From NCBI GenBank assembly GCA_964106915.2, contig OZ066925.1: a stretch of 64,000 bases of DNA; one strand, 5' to 3'. Below are positions 6,391 through 42,400 of the stretch, piece by piece (within the stretch, counting starts at the first letter, position 1; every line of letters begins with the position of its first letter). The translations under genes and the position numbers were made by a program. The DNA comes from Podarcis gaigeae (Eukaryota). Below the pieces are notes generated by a model that saw only the letters and a list, made by a program, of their open reading frames with translations, was not told the DNA's origin and ran no database searches.

Positions 6391-8014
6391 ACGGCTCAAT
6401 GCAATGATAGAGACCCTGGCCTGCTTTGCCAAACTCCAGAGTTAGCAGCCGTCTGCACAGATGGCTGAGGTCACTAATGAGATAATCGTTCGAACACAGT
6501 GCATCTTTAACCACATACTTGAGTTAGGTTTCATAAAGCTTGCTTTGGTCAAGGCAGAAAATACTGAGGGCAAATGAACTACAGCAATACTGTATTCCTT
6601 GCTAGAAAGTATCCAGCAAGAGCTGATATGTTTGTTTATTTCACAGGCTGAGATAACACCCAGTAAACAAAGTACCTAGGTGGTGAACATAACACATCCA
6701 TAAAACAGTATGAACAACTTGGAATAAATTATGTTCATAAACAACATCATTTATTAATTTATTTGTTTAAGACGTTTTAAAATCAACGCTTCAGCTGAAA
6801 AGGAGTAGCTTACAGATCCAAAAAGAAAAAGAAAAAGCAAGGTTGTTCTTGCCATCAGGTTCCAATCTAAAAGACATGACATAAAAAGAAAAAGTGATGA
6901 GAAGGGGGAGTCAAATTCAGGCTGTAGTTCTTAAAGTTACAGTTCTCAAAATAACCAGCTGGGATGGCAGCAGTTCAGATCGCCTTATGCAATGGCTGCC
7001 ACCGGGTGACGGATGTGAGGGAGCCAAAGGCAGCTGGACTAATGGAGTGGCCTTGCTTCCCTTCTCTCTCTGTGTTCCAGTCTGATGGAATGGCTGCCCC
7101 AGTGTTCCCAGAACGTGCTTTCTTGTTGTCTGTGTCATGCTCTGGGAACAGATTTTCAAAGGGCAACAGTTGCCCTTTTCTCCAAAAAGCTTTACTTTTG
7201 AGGACTAGTCTATCCAACACACAACTCAGGTCCTGGGAATAGGAAATGCAGGAGGAGGAGATGGGCAGATGCTTTCAATTTCTTTCATTCACAATAATGA
7301 TCTCCGACAAATTCTCAAAATATTCGTATGTGACCTCATGATTCAACTGCAGCCCAGACAGCTTGAGAGATTGTAAGAAGGGCTCTGTTTTTCAGAAGAA
7401 TGCTGACTACTTATCCCCACCACCACTACCAATAAAGAGCCATTGAAAAGTCATAAGATGCAAGAACAGAACAGAAACACACAAAACAGCTAATCCCATT
7501 GGAATAATGCACTTATTATATAGTGTTGCCTTTCTGCTTTTTTGGAAAGCTCTTCAGACTGACTAGGCTGCTTCTCACTTCTGCATCTAAAACATTTGCA
7601 GCGAACAGTTTGCCATCTGTTAACTAGGAATAACCATGACCCACAAAATATTCCAGGCCAGTTTTGCTTGTGAGTGTGTCATTTATTGTTCAGGTTGGTT
7701 CTGTCCTAGCGTATCTGCAGATGCATCTGACTACAGTGCAATACTAAACTGTGTTGTGAATACATAGGGCATTTTCACAGTAATGTTAAAATGTTTTGGT
7801 TCTTTTTGCATTTTCTCAGACTGTAGATAACTAAAACATCAAACCTACACACAATTTTTAAATTGCCCACTTTTGCTTTCTGCTCTATGTTCACAACATT
7901 GTCATGTGGGCACACAAACAGCATGATCAAAGGCAGCATGGGTACAGGCCTAAGTGTGCGCTCGGTGGCTGGCACTGGTGAAACAATTTCCCTTCTATTC
8001 CAGATTTGTTCCAC

Positions 8015-8191
8015 TTGTTGATCTAGCTCAGTATTGTATATTCTGATGGACAGAGCCTCTTCAGGGTCTCAGGCAGAGGAACATCACCTGCTCCAGAAAG
8101 GATCACTTGCATCCTTTCACCAGGGATGCTCGGGGTTGACTCTGGGATATACATTCTGCACAGAGTGTGTCCTCTACAACTGAGCTATGGT
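8015..8191 (-). mobile_element. Squam3-like tRNA SINE (degenerate)
   Basis: ctctacaactgagctatgg (tRNA A box, reverse) and tctagctcagtattgt tail segment. Confidence 0.65.
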
Positions 8192-8295
8192 CAAGGTGAC
8201 TAACTAGCATCCCTTGTAAACTATATTCGAAGTTTAAATTTGTGCTTGGCTAAGATGGCTTTCCGTGCCATGGCACAAAACAGAACATGCAAAAA

Positions 8296-8427
8296 CTTCA
8301 GGGAAGTTTTTAATGTGTGACATTTTAATGTATTTTTAATCTTTGTTGGAAGCCGCCCAGAGTGGCTGGGGAGACCCAGCCAGATGGGCGGGGTACAAAT
8401 AATAAATTATATTATTATTATTATTAT
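8296..8427 (+). mobile_element. L2 LINE 3' terminus with (ATT)n tail
   Basis: ggaagccgcccagagtggctggggagacccagccagatgggcggggtacaaataataaattatt. Confidence 0.85.
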
Positions 8428-8809
8428 CTGATCATGAGCAAAATTCCCTTCTCCATCTATATCTAGATCTATGAAGAGGCTCATGGAGTCTAGCATCCTG
8501 TAGTATCTCTTCCTTGCTGTAGCTCCCCGGTACACAGTGATGCACACCCTTGTTCCCTGCAGCCATCCAGACTATGGGATGCGGGCTAGATTAAAATAGT
8601 AAGTACCCACTGGCGCATTCATAGCTGCAGAGTCGGGTGAAAAACCAGGGTAAAATTTTTATAATACTTAATTCCCACTTAATTCTTTGGGACTTGCACA
8701 GGACTGCAGCCTCACAACAGGTGTGGCTTCGTGTGTGAGGAATTAAGAGGAAAAAAGAAGAGACACCCAGTCAACAGGAGTGCGGCTTTATTTGTATGTT
8801 TATTTATTA

Positions 8810-9510
8810 CAATGACCCAGCAGGCGAGCTGAAGGAATCCCTTTTCCCGCCGAACGCTGCCTTCCACCTTCCTCCCGCTGCCGCCTTGCCCAGAGAGCCA
8901 AAGGCGAGGCGGGAGGGAGGGAAAAGGAGCGTCTTCCGCGAAGTCCTGAGAGAAACGACGCTCTCACGAGCCTGCACGCCAAAAGCCTCAGAACCGCCTG
9001 ACCTCCGTGACGTCGCCCGGCGCGTGACGCAGCCGCGCAGAGGAAGAGGAGGGGTGAGAAGGGAGGGCTCATAAGTAATCCCCCCGCGTTCTTCGCCTTT
9101 CAAAGCCGCATCTACCACAATAAGCAGCATTCGGCCGGGCGCGCACGCGCGGGAGGCTGACTCAGGACTCTTAACGGTTTTCTCCTCTCCCCCCTCCACC
9201 CCAGTTCCTTCAGCCGGACCTCAAAAGCGCGCATTGGTATCTTCTGACGCAGGACCGTGTGCGCCGCCCCGGCTCCTTCCCCCGTGTGGAGTTTCGTTGC
9301 CCTCTAGGGGAGGAGGGAGAGGATGTGGGAGAAAGAGCGCACGGGGTTTCTTGGGCGGGCACTCTCGCGCTCCTCCCCTTTTGGGAAGCTCTTTTCGGCC
9401 GCCTCAGAAATTCGCCGTGACGTGGGAAACCTTGGCCTTCCAGATGTTTGGTGGGACTGCAACTCCCGGCAGCTGCGGCCAGCATAGGAGCAATGGGGGT
9501 TGTCGTACGA
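8810..9510. promoter_or_regulatory. CpG island / probable housekeeping-type promoter
   Basis: Abrupt high GC and CpG density in an otherwise CpG-depleted window; CRE-like GTGACGTC (~9007) and GTGACGC (~9024), NRF1-like GCGCACGCGC (~9140), inverted CCAAT (~9233), TGACGTGG (~9418), ZNF143-like ACTGCAACTCCCGGC (~9456). Confidence 0.85.
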
Positions 9511-9916
9511 CAAAATCCAGAGGGGTCAGAGGCAGTGCCCAGTGCCAGGCTATTTTGAGTCCTAGGAAAGGCAGACTACTTGCAAACTCTACCCCCCCCC
9601 CCGCAAAACAGTTGCTAACTTCAATTTTCAAAAGCAGATGTAGAAAAAACCCCAACGAAAAACACAGCACTGCTAAATCTATTTTAAGTTGCAAGAAAAA
9701 GTAATGCAGCAATCTTGGGCTATCTTTCCCAAATGCAAAAGGAAACGTTTCAGCACACAAATCTGACCTTGTGAATTGTGATGTTGAGTTTTTAAGTCTC
9801 TTAAATGTTTTCCTTTTCAGGCATGCCAAAATCTCATTTTGCATGTCTTTTCCTTGACAATTTTTTTTTGTCACCAATTCCTTCAGGTCAAGTCTCTTTT
9901 GAAACATTGTGGATCA

Positions 9917-10188
9917 AGAAACAAGCAAACAAACAAAAATTGCTTCCAGTAGCACCTTAGAGACCAACTAAGTTTGTTATTGGTATGAGCTTTTGTGTGC
10001 ATACACACTTCTTCAGATACTGGTATCTGAAGAAGTGTGCATTGATACAGGTATCCGAATAAGTGTGCATGCACACGAAAGCTCATACCAATAACAAACT
10101 TACTTAGTCTCTAAAGTGCTACTGGAATGAATTTTTTTATTTTGTTTCGACTATGGCAGACCAACACGGCTACCTACCTGTAACTAGA
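9917..10188. mobile_element. Penelope-like element remnant (inverted pseudo-LTR arms)
   Basis: Arm ccagtagcaccttagagaccaactaagtttgtt...cttcagatac followed by its reverse complement; end ccaacacggctacctacctg; flanking attgtggatca (9906-9916) / attgtggagca (10189-10199) as likely TSD. Confidence 0.8.
10022..10089 (+). ncRNA. Minimal type I hammerhead ribozyme motif (PLE-associated)
   Basis: GGUAU-CUGAAGA-A-GUGUGCAU...AUGCACAC-GAAA-GC-UC-AUACC: stem I GGUAU/AUACC, core CUGAnGA and GAAA, palindromic AGCU in place of stem III; activity untested. Confidence 0.65.
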
Positions 10189-10368
10189 ATTGTGGAGCAT
10201 ATGTGGGTTTTTATAAGTTTGAACTTTGAGAAATGGCGTTCACCTCTTGTGGCTGACACTGGCATAAACTTCAGAAGCCTTTCGGCTATTGCTGTTAAGT
10301 CCACAGCACAGATCTTCAGCATCAATTCCTTTGTTTCCATTGTGCATCAACGATTTTTCCAAATTCTT

Positions 10369-10520
10369 CATAGAATTGTAGAGTTCGAAGGGGTCCCAAG
10401 GATCAGTTAGTCCAGCCCCCTACAATGCAGGAATCTCAGTTAAAGCATCCATGACAGACAGCCATTCAACCTCTGCTTAAAAGCCTCCACCATCTTCCAA
10501 GGGATACTGTTCCACTTGTA
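10369..10520 (-). mobile_element. CR1 LINE 3' end
   Basis: catagaattgtagagttcgaaggggtccc...tccagccccctacaatgcaggaatctc is the reverse of the CR1 terminal hairpin and ATTCTATG tail. Confidence 0.8.
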
Positions 10521-10743
10521 GGCTTAGGTACATCATCACACCTGCAGCCCACAAGGTAATTTTTGGTCAATTGCAATTGGCTTGCAGCTGAATTTAAATC
10601 AGCTTCCTTCGTTTGTAGCAGGTTGCTTCTCAGATTGACTTCAAAAAGGATGTACCATGTAACAAGGGATACCACAAACTGTGACCCTTCAAAGGTCAGT
10701 ACTGCGTCCCTCTAAGGTCTGAGCCCCTTTTGACTGCCTAGTT

Positions 10744-10953
10744 CATGGGTAGGCAAACTACAGGTTATTTGTGGGGCCTGCCTGGTGTTTTTACATGAAT
10801 AGAATGTGTGCTTTTATTTAAAATGCATCTCTGGGTTATTTGTGGGGCATAGGAATTCGTTCATTTCCCCCCTCAAAATATAGTCCAGCCCCCCCCAATA
10901 AGATCTGAGGGGCAGTGGACTGGCCCCCTGCTGAAAAACTTTGCTGACCCATG
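10744..10953. mobile_element. hAT non-autonomous element
   Basis: Ends catgggtaggcaaact / actttgctgacccatg; 8-bp TSD gcctagtt / gcctattt. Confidence 0.8.
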
Positions 10954-11682
10954 GCCTATTTGGTCACAGTCTCTCTCTCCCCCCCACCTTGGGTTATTCC
11001 TCTCTCCCTGTGTGTGCATCAGCAGGGCAGGTAGAAATTCAACGGTTCAGGCCCATAGTCAAAACTATGAAGGTTAAGAGACTTTAAAGTTATATGTGTG
11101 TGTCTGGGGGGGGAGGGGAGTTGTTTACTGCAAGTTGACATATAGGTGACTTGCCTACCTGCTAAATATGTCTTCCCTGATTTAAGCTTGGGGGGGGGGA
11201 ATCATTGAAGGGGGATGCTATATTCTGAAGAGAGTACTCCCACAGCATCTCCCCTTATGGCTGTTTGCTTAATGTACTGTCTTTCATTCATAGTTTCCAA
11301 CAAAATCATAATCAAATCATAAAACAGATAGGCAACAGCAGGTGCAACTATCCCCAGGATAGAGATGCTATGATGTGAACGGTGGGTGACAGAATTTCAG
11401 GCTGTCATGCAGGTGCAAAAGACATTGGAACCCTACTTGGAAAAAGTGGTAACCCTGTCCTCTCTCCAGTTTTCTAAAATTTTATCAAGTATTTGCTCTT
11501 TTAAGTCATTAATCAAACAAGTGAACACATTCTACATCAGGAAAAGTTTCTCCTACCTTCCTTAGTTTTTGTAATATTGGGAGGATATTACGTAATCACA
11601 ATATTTATCCATGCTAAGTCAAGTGTTACCATACTGCATATTAAACCATTGGCCTACGAAAAGACTTGGACATATTCATATA

Positions 11683-11914
11683 CAGTGGTACCTCGGGTTA
11701 CAGATGCTTCAGATTACAGATGCTTCAGGTTACAGACTCTGCTAACCCAAGAAATAGTACCTTGGGCTAAGAACTTTGCTTCAGGATGAGAACAGAAATA
11801 GTGCGGCGCCTGCGGGAGGCTCCATTAGCTAAAGTGGTACCTCAGGTTAAGAACAGTTTCAGGTTAAGAATGGACCTCCAGAACGAATTAAGTTCTTAAC
11901 CCGAGGTACCACTG
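11683..11914 (+). mobile_element. Tc1/mariner (pogo/Tigger-like) MITE, copy 1
   Basis: Terminal inverted repeat (TIR) cagtggtacctcgggtta / taacccgaggtaccactg; TA duplication. Confidence 0.9.
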
Positions 11915-12421
11915 TACAGTATATCCAACATTTTCGTTTTGTAATACATGTTTTGAGGATACCTAATGTATTTATTTGTGGCATTCCACCATTTCTTTAC
12001 TTTCCCTACATTTTGTAGCTATTCAATGATAGTGAACATATTTCAGAAGCACTTGTAAGATCCATTTCTTTAGTAGTATGTCTTTCTCACCCAATTTGTT
12101 TATTCCTAATTCTATGTGATTTCACTGTGTATGACAGAACCTGGAACTTCAAATTTACTTTATTTTTCATTTTACTTCCCAGATCCATTTTCTTTTTGTC
12201 TTGTAGTATTGTGACAGCCAATCTTATACATGTTTACTTGGAACTAAGTCCTGCTGATTCAATGGAGCTCACACATAAGTGAATGTTTATAAATTTGCAG
12301 ACATAGTTTTATGGAATTAGAAATGCTGCAACGTTTCTTTGTTGGCCTCTCAATATCTCAAAGTTCTTCAGTTATTTACTATGCTGTGTTCAAAAAGATG
12401 TAACAGGCGACAGGTTAAGTA

Positions 12422-12951
12422 CCATATTTTTCGCTCTATAGGACGCACTTTTTTCCCTCCAAAAATTAAGGGGAAATGTGTGTGCATCCTATGGAGCGAA
12501 TGCAGGCTCCTTGGCTTCAGCGATAGCAACGCGAAGCCTCCAAAGTGTAGAGGGAGCACTCCCTCCACGCTCTGGAGGCTTCGTGTTGCTTTCGCTGAAG
12601 CCTGGAGACCGAGAGGGGTGGGTGTGCACCGACCCTTCTTGCCCTCCAGGCTTCAGGAATAGCCGCCTGAAGCCTGCGGAGCGCAGCGCAAGTTCCCACT
12701 GCGCTCTGCAGGCTTCAGGTTCCTTTCGCTGAAGCCGGGAGAGCAAGACTCTCCTGGCTTCAGTAGAGAGGGAGAGCTGCGCAGCGCCCCTTCAGCCAAG
12801 CGGGAGGAGAAATGGAAGGGGCTCCATTTCTCCAGCTGCTTGGCTGAAGGGGCGCTGAGCAGAGAGGGAGAGAATGCTTTTTTCTTGTTCTCCCCCTCTA
12901 AAACAAGGTGCGTCCTATGGTCAGGTGCGTCCTATAGAGCGAAAAATACGG
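12422..12951. mobile_element. Tc1/mariner-superfamily non-autonomous DNA transposon
   Basis: TIR ccatatttttcgctctataggacgcac / gtgcgtcctatagagcgaaaaatacgg; TA on both sides; GC-rich interior of cttcagc/gctgaag subrepeats. Confidence 0.9.
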
Positions 12952-13884
12952 TAATAAATTTTGAAGTGAGGCAGTAGCACTGGATTACAGAAGTCTCTTC
13001 CTGTCCAAAATCGCTTCCGGACAACCTTTTTATTGAGCGTACTTTGTGAACTGTTCATGGGATGTTAGATGGCATTGCCTCGGGCAAGTGGCATTCCACA
13101 CTTTCCAGGACATTTTTATATCACTTTTATAGCAAAACCTGATATTTTGGAGAAAGGAGGGTTGTTGTGCAAGTCCTTCAACTGCACTTAAATTGCACAA
13201 CCTGGATTTTCCAGTATGTGCGTGAATCCCACCTAAATATAGTGAAAGTCTGAAAGTGCCCCAAATCTCTTGATACTGGATTAAATATATCACCAGCTTG
13301 ATATACCTTGCTTATTTTACCATATGAAACCATATGACAGGAAAACATATATGTATTATTTACCATCTTCTATAGTTGCTTTTTGGACCTCTAATGCAGT
13401 GCACGCATCTGTGGATCTTGTACCTGTAGTTATTTTATGGAGAGGGACCTGATTGCACCTGATTTGCAAGTGAAAGGTCTGGGATTTATTCCTGGTTATC
13501 TCCACTTCAAAGGCTCTTGGGCCACAGGTGATGGGAAACACTTTTTTCTGAGACCCTGGAGAGCTGCTGTCAGTCTGAAGATAATCCTTGGTTAGATGTT
13601 ATAAGGCAGATTTCTGTGTTTCTGTAAATTATAAAAATAATTGTTTTGTGCATGGAATTAGAATGGCTAACAAACATACATAGAAAATTAATCTGTCTTT
13701 ATGACTGAGAGCTGTGTGGCAACCATAAGTCAGAATGAGGTGTTCCGTGTGCCTGAGTCTAAAGACTGGCAGCGAGAAAGCAAAATAAAAGAGAGATGTT
13801 GTATTATGGTAGCATTATGATTGTTATGTGCTAGGTACTGACATAGGCTGTGACTGTGAGTCCAGTGAATTTCATTATCTTTCA

Positions 13885-19090: not shown

Positions 19091-21661
19091 TACTTAAAAA
19101 TCAAATTTTATGCAGAAGTGTGTCCTCTTTTGGGGGGATGATTGCTTGAGTTTGGCAGGGCAGGTAGTGGGTTAGATCTGTGATGCCTCTCACTCAGGAC
19201 TGAATGGAGGTGAGGCAAGAATTTGAAGCAGAAGTCCATGGCTATGTGAGCATCCCTGCTTGAATTCTTATGACCAGAATCAAGATGGGCATAGTCTGCT
19301 GTGAACAGACCCCACATCTTGATCCTGCTCACCCCTCCAGATACTTGACTTTTCCACTTCTTCCAAGGCAAAAAACAAAACAAAAAACCCCAATCTCACT
19401 TTGGGGAAAGTGTTGGGAGTTGGCAGGTGTGCCAGATCTATAAAAGTTTGCTCCCCCTCATTAGAGGCCAATGGTGTATCAATTTCCACAAGTAATCCTG
19501 AGACTTGTCCTAGGTCCCCAGTGGGGAAGACTTTGCTCTGCACATCAGTGATAGCATATGCTGCCAATTCACCTTCAGTCTTAGAGGATTGGGTGGCAGT
19601 TTCCACTCTATGGGGCTTGTTTAATGTTCCCGTCAAACACTTGAAAAGCCCTTCCAGGCTCTGAAGTGCAGACAGGCTATTTTGGAGCAGTTGGGAGGAC
19701 TGCAATCACCCAGCCCTATCCTTGATCCCTACTACCAGGAGATATTCTCAGAGATTACTATTAAATGTTTCATGGCTGCTTTCTTTGTGTTCAATGGTTG
19801 AGGGAGTGAAAGTGTCCTGGATTTCAGTGGTCTAGGATACATACTGGGCCATGTGACTTATTGAGCATTCATCCTTATATATTTCCATATAGCCTTATAC
19901 AGAAGGTAGACTATATCTGGTATTTATTGAGCATTTGTTCTGATTTGTTTGCGATGCAGATATGCAACAAATTACGTTCTCTTGCATTCATCCTGATTTG
20001 CTTGTGTGGTGTTTATACATCTTCCCATTAATTATTTGTTCATTACACTTTTCCGTGCATTTCCTTGACACTTTCTGACCTGCAAAACATCAATTAGTTC
20101 TTTTAAAAGCAGATCTGTTGTGCTGGGACGACAAAACTCTTTAATGATGTGAACTTAAAGTTCTGGTTCATGTTTGAATCACTCTCATGAAATACTGACT
20201 ATCTGGAGGCACCCACAGTCATAATCCCCCTTCCCCCCCAAGAAATGATTTCCAAGTGGCATTGCAAGACTATTTTAAACTCTTGAAAAAAGTGATCTGC
20301 TTTTCAAGCCTTCGGTGACACCCTCAATTTGAATCTAAATTGTGGTTTGAGCAGAGGGGAGTTTACGTGCTCCCCCCTTTGAATAAGAAAATGCTGTTCA
20401 TCTACAGCAGAAAGTTCCACCAGTTGACAGAGTCAGCCCAAGGCATTTTGACACCTAAGGTGAACCACAAAATATCAACCCCCCCTCCTGGGAAGAAGGA
20501 GTGAGTGCAGATTTACACCAGGAATCAATGGCCATTTCTTGGGGTGGAGGAAGACCCCAGAGGTCACCCCCAGGCATTTCCTCCCCAGGTAAGGGAGGAG
20601 ATCAGCCCCACCTCCTATTCACAAAGAAGTTGCTGTAGAGGTTGCATTGGGTAGGATGGGGGGGCTACAGAGTAGGTGGCAGATCCGCCCTCCGAGGAGC
20701 ATGCTGCAGCTTTTCCTGCCATCACTGTGGCACCAGTGGGCAATGCATTCCTTGGAGGCAGGATCTGCTGCCCCGGTGGATCTTGAGGACCGAAGCGGTC
20801 ATCTCACCTTGCCTCATGCTTGAGCTGGCCCTGCCAGCTGAACAGGAGCAAGAGGTTTGACTGTTTGTTGCTGGCACACAGAACACCCTTATGACTGATT
20901 CTTTTACAGAGTTAGGTGTGTCTAAGTCCACTGATTTTAGTTGGCATATACATACCTCAAACTCTGCATAGGATCAAGATGTTAGTTTATTTTTTCCATT
21001 TTTTCCCATACCACTTGCCCTTTTTCTTTTCTCCCCTTTTTGGGGGTAATTTAATCCTGAGGGCCAGACGTCCAAGCACAAACAAGAAAATGAACTCCAG
21101 CAATAAAACCACTACTTTGTTAAGAGACATTTTGATGATGATAATTTTTTTTTTAAAAAAAAGCTGCAGAAATGCAGCTGACCTCAATGCCATTTTACAT
21201 AGAATTTGAAATGACACATTTATTTTGCACTCTTAATTATAAAGCCCAAGACAGTAGGCTGTGTAATGTGAAAAAGTGCTGTTCTGAAAACAAAAGTCCA
21301 TCGTATTATTTGTGTGTTTATAATTCATTGTTTATTTTATTTAGGATGTAAATATAGCCTTCTCTCCAGTTGGCTGGTTAGCTCTGTACTTTGGTAGAAT
21401 GGTTCAGTGCTATGGGATGTTTTGGGGGACACTAAAGGGTTACTATTCACATTTCCTGTGTAATTCCTTCTGATCTTGCTGAGCTGTAATTATTTTCTTG
21501 AGGTTAAACATTCCCAGGCTCCTATAACCTTCTAGTCTGTTTGCAATGGCCAACTTTGTCCCAGGTGATCATGTGGGCGAACCTCCTGCTTTTAAGGAAA
21601 AGAAAATCTCTTTCCTGTGTAAGATACTTTAACTGTGCCGTCTTTTGCTTTACAATCCCAG

Positions 21662-28515: not shown

Positions 28516-30252
28516 CTGACTTAGGTCCATTAATTTCATTCTGTCTATTCTGAGTATAACATCTCGATGCAACCCTTCGTCTTGAACTGGGGATACTTGA
28601 CTTGAATCATCATTATCTGTGAAGATATTTTTGCCTATAATTTGTAAGCAAAGCAAGATGCATACTCCATGACTGATTCATGAGATGTCTCCACTTGACC
28701 TTTTTATTTCTGTTCCTGCTTTTTGTATCCCTGCCTTAATAATGCTTCCCTCCCCATCCGAGACCTGGTCAGAATAATTTTCTGCAGCAGCCCAGAGGAA
28801 ATAGGGCATTAATTACAATTTTATATTGTGTATTATCCGCTCTCTTAATAGAGTTCAAGTTAATGCAATCATAATCATTCAGAAAGGGCATTTACCTTAC
28901 AAAGGACAACCTATTGTGAAAACAGCAAGAAACACCTCCCTGTACAGAGCAGCGCAATTTGAACCCATATTGTTTTACAGTTCACTTCATGAAAGGGGGG
29001 GGATAGAAAATACTTAAGTGTTCTCTGTATCATCAGAATGCAGTCCATCCATTTTTTAAAGAGCAAGAGGAACATTATAATTCCTTCTGCTAAAGAAATT
29101 TAAATTGCTGGGGGGGACAGGTGTAACAGGGTCTTCTCAGTGATGGCTCCACCTCTGTTGGATACACACCTAAAGAATTCTGCCTAAACATGAGGATCCA
29201 TACACTCCAAGAAAGTCTCTTTTTGGAAGCTTTTATTATTTTGTTCTGCTTTCTTGAGTCAGTATATTCTAATTTTATCTTAGCCTACATGCATTATGAT
29301 GAAAAGAAGGGTTATGATGGTAGTATTTACTGATGATTGTCAGCTACTTTTGGGTTTAGGGAAAATAGGGTAGAATTTATTAAACTGAAAGTAAAACTAA
29401 AAGTTCAATGGGACTTAGTCCCAGGTAAGAATGTAGAGGATTGCAGTCTAAATGATGTAATTTGCCATGAATGTTAACCAAGTTCTAGCACCCTGGATGT
29501 ATGTGCTTCAGAAAAGAAAATGCTCTGAATTTGAAGAGATCTCAGCTTGGATAAGCGTTGTTTCAAACAGCATTTTGATAAATAATAATTTATCTCTTTC
29601 TCATAAATCTCCAGATGTATCACTTGTGAAAATGACTTATGTCGAGTGCTCAAAGGAAAGAAAATGAGAGAAATTGCAGGATAGAAATGGCTTTAAAGAT
29701 GTAAAGTAGGAATCCTATTTTGAAAAGTTTTAGAGAGGATTGAGGGAAAATGTATTCATTGGGGTGGAAATGCCACACAGCATAAGCCCAGACCTATAGC
29801 TGTCATGCAGCATGTTTCCTAACAGGAGAAGATGTATACATCCCCGAAACACAATTTTTAAAGTTCACTGCCAGAGGGAACACACAAGAGTAAAACTGTG
29901 CTTGTTGTATACCACTTACAACTACAATTTCAGTTTTAAACAGTGCCATCGACAGGACCATGCAAATGGTCCTCCACAATTGTGGAGGAGGTTGTAAACC
30001 CTCCCTTCATTCAGAAATGCTGACATAGATATATTTGGGCAGGTGTATGAAGTGTTACACAGATAAACAAGTGAAGCTTCTAACGTGAAATGAGTGTATA
30101 TTGTTCCATCCCCTTGGTACGAATCTTCACTGTATGGGTTTTGATTCTCAAACAGGAGATATTCAACATCAGCGATAGATTCAAGTAGGTAGCCGTGTTG
30201 GTCTGACACAGTCAAAATAAATAAAATAAAAAATTGTCCAGTAGCACCTTAG

Positions 30253-30616
30253 GTAAGGGTAAAGGGTCACCTGACCCTTAAGTCCAGTTGCAGACGACTC
30301 GGGGGTTACGGCGCTCATCTCACTTTGCTGGCTGAGGGAGCTGGCGTTTGTGTCACAGACAGCTTCTGGGTCATGTGACCAGTATGACTAAGCCGCTTCT
30401 GGTGAACCAAAGCAGCACATGGAAACGCCATTTACCTTCCCGCCGGAGCGGTACCTATTTATCTACTTGCACTTTGACATGCTTTCGAACTGCTAGGTTG
30501 GCAGGAGCAGGGACCGAGCAACGGGAGCTCACCCTGTCATGGGGATTCGAACCGCCGACTTTCTGATCGGCAAGCCCTAGGCTCTGTGGTTTAGACCACA
30601 GCACCACCCGCATCCC
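30253..30616 (-). mobile_element. Full-length Sauria SINE flanked by a ~146-bp direct repeat
   Basis: Reverse complement of the Sauria consensus; flanks 30107-30252 and 30611-30761 are duplicates. Confidence 0.93.
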
Positions 30617-30683
30617 CTTGGTATGAATCTTCACTGTATGGGTTTCAATTCTAAAATAGGAGATATTTAACATCAGTGATAAA

Positions 30684-30910
30684 TTCAGGTAGGTAGCCAT
30701 GTTGGTTTGACACAGTCGAAATAAATAAAAAAAATCAAAAAATTGTCCAGTAGCACCTTAGAGACCAACTAAGTTTGTTCTGGGTATAAGCTTTCGTGTA
30801 CATGGTATCTGAAGAAGTATCTGAAAAAGTGTGCATGCACACGAAAGCTTATACCCAGAACAAACTTAGTTGGTCTCTAAGGTGCTACTGGACAATTTTT
30901 TGATTTATTT
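30684..30910. mobile_element. Penelope-like element remnant (inverted arms), copy 2
   Basis: aggtaggtagccatgttgg...ccagtagcaccttagagaccaactaagtttgttc and its inverse; TSD catcagcgataga (30911-30923, matching 30167-30179 and 30671-30683). Confidence 0.82.
30817..30855 (+). ncRNA. Degenerate minimal hammerhead ribozyme motif
   Basis: GUAU-CUGAAAA-A-GUGUG CAUG CACAC-GAAA-GC-UU-AUAC; core G8 is replaced by A, so probably inactive. Confidence 0.5.
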
Positions 30911-40929: not shown

Positions 40930-42074
40930 TTTTTTTTTAAAAAAAACATTTTTTTATTGCTTTTTAAAGATACAGAAATACAGAAAAAAGAATAAAGAGT
41001 GGTTATAAGAAAAAAGGATATAAATAACAAATTTCCATATTCTTTTTCCATCTAATCTATAGGGCTTCCCCACATCCTCCGAACCCTGCGTTCTCTGTCT
41101 TATAAAGCATCAGCAATTTGTTAACTTATTTCAAAACTTATTGTAACTTCCATTTTATCATGTTCCCTATTTTCAATTTTACTATAGCTCAATTCTTATA
41201 TGTTTTATATTAAACACAATAAAGTTATTTCATTATTTTACCTCTGAATTCTTGTGTCTTAATTTTCATTTCATTAACTTACATTTGCTGAAGCTAGAAT
41301 TTCCTGAAAGGTGCATTTTTTAACATTCATACAGCTTATAGTGTTTTTTCAAATAGTTCTTAAACTTTTCCCAGTCCTCCTCAGTTGTTTCTTCTCCCAC
41401 GTCTCGGATTCTGCCAGTCATTTCAGCCAGTTCCATATAGTCCATCAACTGCGATTGCCATTCCTCCAGCGTGGGTAAATCTTGTGTCTTCCAATATTTT
41501 GCAATCAGGATCCTTGCTGCTGTGGTAGCATACATGAAAAAGGTTCTGTCCTTCTTAAGCACTCTCTGGTCCACCATGCCCAGAAGGAAGGCCTCTGGTT
41601 TTTTAGGTAAGGTAAATCTCAGTACCTTTTTTAGTTCATTATGGATCATTTCCCAGAAGGCCTTCACTTTCGGGCAGGTCCACCAGAGATGAAAGAATGT
41701 CCCTTCCGCCTCTCCACATTTCCAACATTTGTTGTCAGACAGATGATATATCTTGGCTAACTTGACTGGGGTCATGTACCACCGGTATACCATTTTCATA
41801 ATATTTTCCTTCAAGGCAGTGCATGCCGTGAATTTCAAACCGGTGTTCCATAACCTTTCCCAGTCTGCAAACATAATGTTATGCCCCACATCCTGAGCCC
41901 ATTTTATCATAGCGGATTTGACTGTCTCATCCTGTGTATTCCACTTAAGCAGCAAGTTATACATTCTCGAAAGTAGCTTACTTTTTGGCTCTAACAATTC
42001 AGTCTCTAGTTTCGATTTTTCCACCTGGAATCCAACTTTTTTATCTATTTTAAATACCTCTTGAATTTGCGCAT
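40930..42074 (-). mobile_element. Young 5'-truncated L1-clade LINE
   Basis: Perfect 20-bp TSD agatagcttcttacattctc (40910-40929, 42075-42094); AATAAA and poly(A) on the minus strand; open ORF2 C-terminus. Confidence 0.93.
41320..42072 (-). pseudogene. Truncated L1 ORF2 C-terminal region (zf-RVT-like CWKC...H...C motif)
   Basis: About 250 open codons up to the truncation point, including YRWYMTP...KCWKCGEAEGTFFHLWWTCPKVKAFW; no genuine start codon. Confidence 0.85.
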
Positions 42075-42400
42075 AGATAGCTTCTTACATTCTCATGGGA
42101 AATGGGCATCCCTATACAAAGAAACAGCCACTGTGATCCCACCACAAGGTACTTTTTAGAAATGAAAAAGCTGCATCTTTAATTTGCAGCATCTCTGATT
42201 AAAATGTTCCCTCATTGATTAAAATGGACTCCCATCAATTTAATCAACTTGATCTCTAGTCAGTTAATCAGCATGTTAAAGCATGCATTAGCCCTGCTAA
42301 TAATGTTGGCAACATCTCTGAGTCATTTTGTGCAAATAACTAGTCCTGAAAAATATTTCTTATGTTTTAGCACTATACAAATATTCACAGCAGGCTGTAT

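Follow-up and report, generated by a model that had tools for sequence, protein, structure and literature searches.

Does a hammerhead motif that is complete only across a tandem duplication, and that lies close to a probable promoter, represent a self-cleaving RNA or a relic of the transposon that brought it? We have examined this question for a motif found at positions 10021-10090 (plus strand) of a 64,000-nucleotide stretch of Podarcis gaigeae DNA (contig OZ066925.1, assembly GCA_964106915.2), referred to here as the window. An earlier examination of the letters alone (the sequence-only reading) had described a Penelope-like insertion with a duplicated ribozyme 5' half, in which the intact upstream core might give a potentially active self-cleaving RNA in the first intron of a plus-strand transcript. 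Our analysis makes it very probable that this is a short head-to-head Penelope-like insertion in which a duplication at the junction of the arms has resulted in a complete hammerhead motif; this motif is likely inactive, as the antisense arm is predicted to trap it.

A Penelope-like insertion within a decayed hAT transposon

The whole insertion covers 9917-10188 (272 bp) and consists of two head-to-head arms with no ORF. It is bordered by an 11-bp target-site duplication on the plus strand, the left copy (9906-9916) having one mismatch to the right copy (10189-10199). The short inverted arm (9917-10020, minus strand) has no tail and carries a hammerhead remnant at 9982-10020, while the long arm (10051-10188, plus strand) has an additional tail (10149-10188, about 40 nt) that the short one lacks. 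Compared over 100 nt, the inverted arms (9928-10027 versus 10044-10143) are 86% complementary, with a palindromic junction, and both start at the 5' edge of helix I of the hammerhead. The end of the element was confirmed behind 10189 by 75-78 contigs with loose ends per DNA run, in three related organisms.

The summed contig depth over the arms was about 28,000 to 97,000 times that of the unique flank in all three DNA runs, a ratio that is not a copy number and from which we take no more than an excess of four to five orders of magnitude. The insertion is thus a member of a very high-copy family, of which the window itself holds two complete copies and a partial one. On structural grounds these four features (inverted arms, target-site duplication, one-sided tail and high copy) identify it as Penelope-like, the origin that had already been proposed from the letters. 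A non-LTR retrozyme was considered and ruled out, with arms that are head-to-head and a tandem part that amounts to a 28-nt partial duplicate only. Being one copy of a very abundant repeat, the insertion matters little as such.

The DNA that received it is also of transposon origin. A remnant of a hAT transposase spans 9890-10346 on the minus strand and is split by the insertion. Its right part, corresponding to the C-terminal dimerisation region (10191-10289, minus strand), was confirmed by a phmmer match to protein P0002 (E 2.4e-4, 48% over 33 aa), which carries Dimer_Tnp_hAT with an E of 2.5e-31. In the left flank the hAT frame continued by eye for 8 residues; BLASTP of this piece against P0002 returned no alignment, and a direct Pfam search of the hAT pieces matched none of the three. 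The element therefore inserted into a dead DNA transposon. Further downstream, the segments 11681-11916 and 12415-12958 have terminal inverted repeats of 20-25 bp and 34 bp and are probably miniature DNA transposons. Several internal GC-rich hairpins are found in the element at 12415-12958.

A hammerhead motif assembled across a duplication

At the junction of the two arms there is a 28-nt tandem duplication, in which 10016-10043 is repeated at 10044-10071 (both plus strand) with differences at 4 of the 28 sites (10021, 10028, 10032 and 10043 in the upstream duplicate). What had been described as a duplicated ribozyme 5' half is a real duplication, but the 28-nt unit also takes in the palindromic pivot of the insertion. 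The upstream duplicate has an intact CUGAAGA (CTGAAGA in the DNA) at 10027-10033, directly followed by an extra A at 10034, and in the downstream duplicate the core is mutated to CCGAAUA (CCGAATA in the DNA, 10055-10061). With the upstream duplicate, helix II is formed by GTGTGCAT (10035-10042) and ATGCACAC (10069-10076), paired in 8 of 8 Watson-Crick positions around a 26-nt loop. The 3' half of the motif follows as GAAA (10077-10080), GC (10081-10082), UC (10083-10084) and ATACC (10085-10089), and helix I can be extended from 5 to 6 bp (10021-10026 with 10085-10090). In this way the invariant core CUGANGA, GAAA and UH is present together with helices I (5-6 bp) and II (8 bp), giving a reassembled minimal type I hammerhead motif with a putative cut after C10084. 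The position of helix III is occupied by a lone A15.1-U16.1 pair closed by a 2-nt loop, which we count as no helix III.

When rechecked, both cores, the 8-bp stem II, GAAA-GC-UC and ATACC were all found where the sequence-only reading had placed them. The isolated 68-mer 10022-10089 also folds as the hammerhead that had been drawn (MFE -19.2 kcal/mol, z -2.5), in line with the proposal that the duplication allows the core to be reassembled. When both strands of the window were scanned with a descriptor of minimal type I, the class to which the motif had been assigned, this motif was the single match, and there was no match in 20 of 20 shuffles. This result indicates that the motif is not chance sequence and was inherited from the transposon. 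The covariance models were less favourable, with no Rfam hammerhead family among the 37 matches at E<=10 in 8000-13000 or among the 5 matches at E<=10 in 10012-10100. Rfam microRNA matches were below the gathering scores and reflect the long hairpin, so they were set aside. A pattern scan of metagenomes produced four loci, which are 20-21-nt matches with unrelated flanks, and one of viral contigs produced none.

The hammerhead remnant of the minus strand (9982-10020) has an intact CUGAAGA, but its GAAA has become AAAA by a change at position 9994 (G12A). A similar rescue is impossible on that strand because its only GAAA position reads AAAA.

Family copies and the origin of the duplication

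The second complete copy of the window, at 30682-30910, has the same organization, with head-to-head arms around a palindromic junction, an arm start exactly at helix I as in 9917-10188, and an 11-bp target-site duplication. At its junction, 12 nt of the ribozyme start are duplicated. Its upstream core is intact and the downstream one reads CTGAAAA, in a spacing that fails the descriptor. Compared with 9917-10188 the tail is located on the opposite arm, which is cut short within helix II. Both complete copies of the window thus have the first 12-20 nt of the ribozyme duplicated where their arms meet. In the same area, a segment of about 150 bp that takes in the tail end of this second copy occurs twice, at 30104-30252 and 30610-30760. 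The repeats flank an insert of about 355 bp (30253-30609), which we take to be SINE-like, in an arrangement that resembles an unusually long insertion-associated duplication.

The contigs also gave access to the family as a whole. A total of 378 distinct joints were detected over 2.3 kb, and among the 15 listed, 11 have one side at 10016-10023. These joints stem from other copies, and their partners vary in position and in inserted letters; therefore the junction has been made differently each time. One arm nearly always ends at the edge of helix I and not at the cleavage site (11 of the 15 joints listed), which hints that the template RNA starts there.

We propose that the 28-nt duplication dates from the joining of both copied strands at the pivot, during integration or shortly after it. 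The divergence between the arms (7/76) and that between the duplicates (4/28) do not differ (Fisher p 0.48), as would fit a duplication and an insertion of the same age; the timing is weakly constrained by 28 sites. The duplication could also have been produced much later, independently of integration, by slippage or a template switch that the palindrome provoked when the DNA was replicated, and the repeat unit, which spans the pivot and takes 5 nt of the inverted arm, does look like a tandem copy of an existing junction. However, divergence is no lower between the duplicates than between the arms, a separate 12-nt duplication is present at the equivalent position of the second copy, and the family shows a variety of junctions. 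We consider such a later origin rather unlikely; it departs from the preferred explanation in this step only and is compatible with the main claim, as the motif would still be inactive.

Should junction duplications prove common genome-wide, they could be counted as a footprint of strand joining in Penelope integration, a step that the accounts cited here still treat as unsolved (PMC8557442, PMC11167929). We did not find this footprint named in the literature searched, which is weak evidence of its absence from print.

Transcription from the CpG island

A CpG island located at 8751-9525 (GC 0.63 and CpG o/e 0.88 in 9001-9500) is a probable promoter, with a probable plus direction, and lies about 0.5 kb from the motif, as the first examination had pointed out. 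This island is single-copy and kept in three related organisms. Downstream of it the plus strand has a G+T skew of +0.027 (95% interval 0.017-0.036, 43 of 54 blocks positive, transposons unmasked), and upstream the value is +0.011 with an interval spanning zero. There are no plus-strand poly(A) signals in 9300-11300 and six minus-strand ones in 6900-8900. A donor-like site is present at 9053. The skew, the poly(A) asymmetry and this site favour a plus-strand gene starting at the CpG island. A presumed-RNA run gave one depth-3 contig (9182-9337), without strand or splice joint, which speaks neither for nor against transcription. Of the proposed plus-strand transcript, the unit starting at the island thus receives indirect support; the potential ribozyme activity attributed to it was not supported. 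With a plus-strand orientation, the antisense arm is transcribed before the hammerhead.

All 550 stop-to-stop ORFs of at least 48 aa were compared with Pfam (E 1 to 0.002); none reached the curated threshold, and no exon or gene was recognized among them. A SAND match at 13359-13598 (E 0.0026) was below the cut-off and we do not believe it. An open frame of 141 aa on the minus strand (19283-19705) is coding-like by eye; it had no Pfam match, and an Atlas search returned unnamed matches under 0.9 only, none convincing. Another one of 254 aa (41323-42084, minus strand) had no Pfam match at E<=0.002, and looks like the C terminus of a LINE ORF2.

Folding of the motif with its natural flanks

The probability that helices I and II form depends strongly on how much of the upstream sequence is included. 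It was 0.65 for 10022-10089, 0.37 when the RNA began at 10012, 0.0007 from 10010, 4e-9 from 10004 and approximately 6e-28 in the whole element, i.e., 12 nt of natural upstream sequence lower it from 0.65 to 0.0007. Imposing the hammerhead fold on the whole element costs 38.7 kcal/mol (39.7 with the core held unpaired). Folding with and without the upstream sequence, which the sequence-only reading had recommended as a check, shows the hammerhead favoured only without the upstream arm. Its caveat that the long inverted repeat could sequester the motif proved well founded, since the long hairpin dominates in the folding model, an outcome which that reading had itself named as a refutation. The potentially active RNA envisaged in a host transcript fares badly, with a predicted cost of some 39 kcal/mol in the presence of the upstream arm and with helix III absent.

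The model also predicts in which order the two halves of the motif would be blocked. The upstream duplicate would pair with the inverted arm in a 16-bp hairpin (10004-10039, plus strand, predicted -22.9 kcal/mol) that buries CUGAAGA once transcribed, and with transcription from the left the unpaired probability of this core is at most 0.04 in all six prefixes ending at 10033-10062. In longer prefixes and in the final long hairpin CUGAAGA is partly in a loop (unpaired 0.68), and the block affects the 3' half, as the long duplex of about 90 bp takes in the 3' strand of helix II, GAAA and the cleavage site. An RNA coming from the CpG island would hence contain the antisense arm first, which would capture CUGAAGA by pairing while the 3' half is still to be made, and the predicted product would be an intronic double-stranded hairpin and not a ribozyme. 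These are equilibrium models that ignore RNA-binding proteins, helicases and editing, and with them the hammerhead fold is predicted to be inaccessible in a transcript with its natural upstream arm.

Cleavage competence

The published data suggest that minimal Penelope hammerheads would need a partner or a protein even if unhindered. Single minimal hammerheads are reported to give no detectable cleavage, and dimers and trimers to cleave weakly (PMC4209133, where opposite-strand pairs of these motifs are already reported). The hammerhead of a green anole element is described as giving no cut without protein, with no RNA-seq reads ending at the cut (PMC11167929). Amphibian motifs with a weak helix III are said to cut better as dimers (PMC7229834), and 8 of 9 Xenopus dimer constructs are reported without cleavage (bioRxiv 10.64898/2026.07.22.740005).

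In the case described here, activity could be conceived if an RNA made from an internal promoter of the element started at 10012-10022. Such an RNA would be free of the antisense arm and could fold and cleave slowly with the help of either a partner RNA, with the AGCU palindrome as helix III, or the protein of the element. RNAs with these starts do form helices I and II in short constructs with a probability of 0.37-0.67. In longer 3' contexts, with starts at 10016-10022, the values were 0.66 up to 10188, 0.50 for 10022-10600 and 0.02 for 10016-10400. The edge of helix I is where arms of the family end, which a template RNA with its start at that point would explain, and Drosophila Penelope is reported to have an internal promoter (PMC2377424). 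The weak cleavage by dimers and trimers mentioned above also agrees with this idea. However, a search for a tandem partner that could supply helix III found no second intact motif in the 64-kb window (one descriptor match), and thus no intact plus-strand partner. An AGCU helix between two molecules contributes no more than -2.5 kcal/mol, the MFE structure predicted for the dimer has other pairs, and nothing distinguishes the duplicated copy from the many unduplicated ones. With the Xenopus dimers pointing in the same direction, we regard such a conditional activity as improbable. On the folding predictions, the motif at 10021-10090 is probably a remnant without activity rather than a functioning RNA switch.

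Persistence and decay of the insertion

Contigs pass from the unique flank into the left arm in DNA runs X14 and X16 (35 and 39 nt inside), and in X15 they stop short. None of the listed contigs crosses the center of the insertion, as contigs break inside the repeat. The insertion is common to at least two of the three related organisms, with flanks that differ by roughly 1-2%, and therefore has persisted. We define as a rescue pattern the one found here, i.e., an upstream core intact, a downstream core hit and a 3' core intact. Given the duplication, a simple decay model with 3-10% change per site produces this pattern with a chance of 12-16%, and therefore selection is not needed to explain it. 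Against chance decay one may set the perfect upstream core next to a downstream core with two changes. The arm bearing GAAA-UC has accumulated 5 private changes in 76 nt, which speaks against exaptation. Within our preferred explanation, neutral decay would have put two changes into the downstream core and one into the GAAA of the minus strand, the upstream duplicate escaping by chance.

We find it highly improbable that the duplication rebuilt a working hammerhead and that RNA escaping the antisense arm (by a start at the pivot or by protein unwinding) cleaves itself in the first intron, after C10084, with an effect on the host transcript. If true, this would be a natural example of a duplication mending a ribozyme whose activity is controlled by an antisense arm. 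Least credible of all is an exaptation in which the intronic ribozyme would regulate the host gene and selection would have kept the duplication for rescuing the core: an intact upstream core located 0.5 kb beyond a CpG island that shows plus-strand asymmetry, an insertion common to relatives and the existence of domesticated intronic hammerheads (PMC6155905) would suit it, but the energy against the fold in a host transcript, the absence of helix III and of an Rfam hammerhead match, a rescue pattern within the reach of chance, the private changes of the GAAA-UC arm and the location of the motif in nested transposon debris all speak against it. The lesson of this case is that a descriptor-perfect hammerhead needs folding with its flanks before being called active.

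Comparison with known systems

The insertion unit of endonuclease-positive Penelope-like elements, as described by Arkhipova et al. (PMC3846280) and Craig et al. (PMC8557442), is similar to 9917-10188 in its inverted truncated arm and junction palindrome. The 30-40-bp tail at one end and the pLTR hammerhead of the published unit are matched as well, and its target-site duplication is of the 8-10-bp class versus 11 bp here. The insertion studied here differs in having only two arms and no ORF, and in the 28-nt tandem duplication over the pivot. With respect to the minimal type I hammerheads of metazoan Penelope elements described by Cervera and de la Pena (PMC4209133), the difference is that helix II is closed across the duplication, so that the 26-nt loop holds a dead second core, and that its own antisense arm overlaps the motif.

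Among reptiles, the Poseidon element PAc of the green anole (PMC11167929), compared here by its description, is alike as a Penelope-like element with a pLTR hammerhead and insertion ends about 30-40 nt apart. The cut in PAc is placed 26 nt after the start codon, whereas in 9917-10188 an ATG in loop II lies 16 nt before the putative cut, in a frame with a stop. Finally, the intronic hammerheads that amniotes have in RECK and other genes (PMC6155905) share with this case the type I motif, which lies here in a putative intron. They are described as highly conserved across amniotes, whereas the motif of 9917-10188 is minimal, belongs to a high-copy repeat and has a competing antisense arm.
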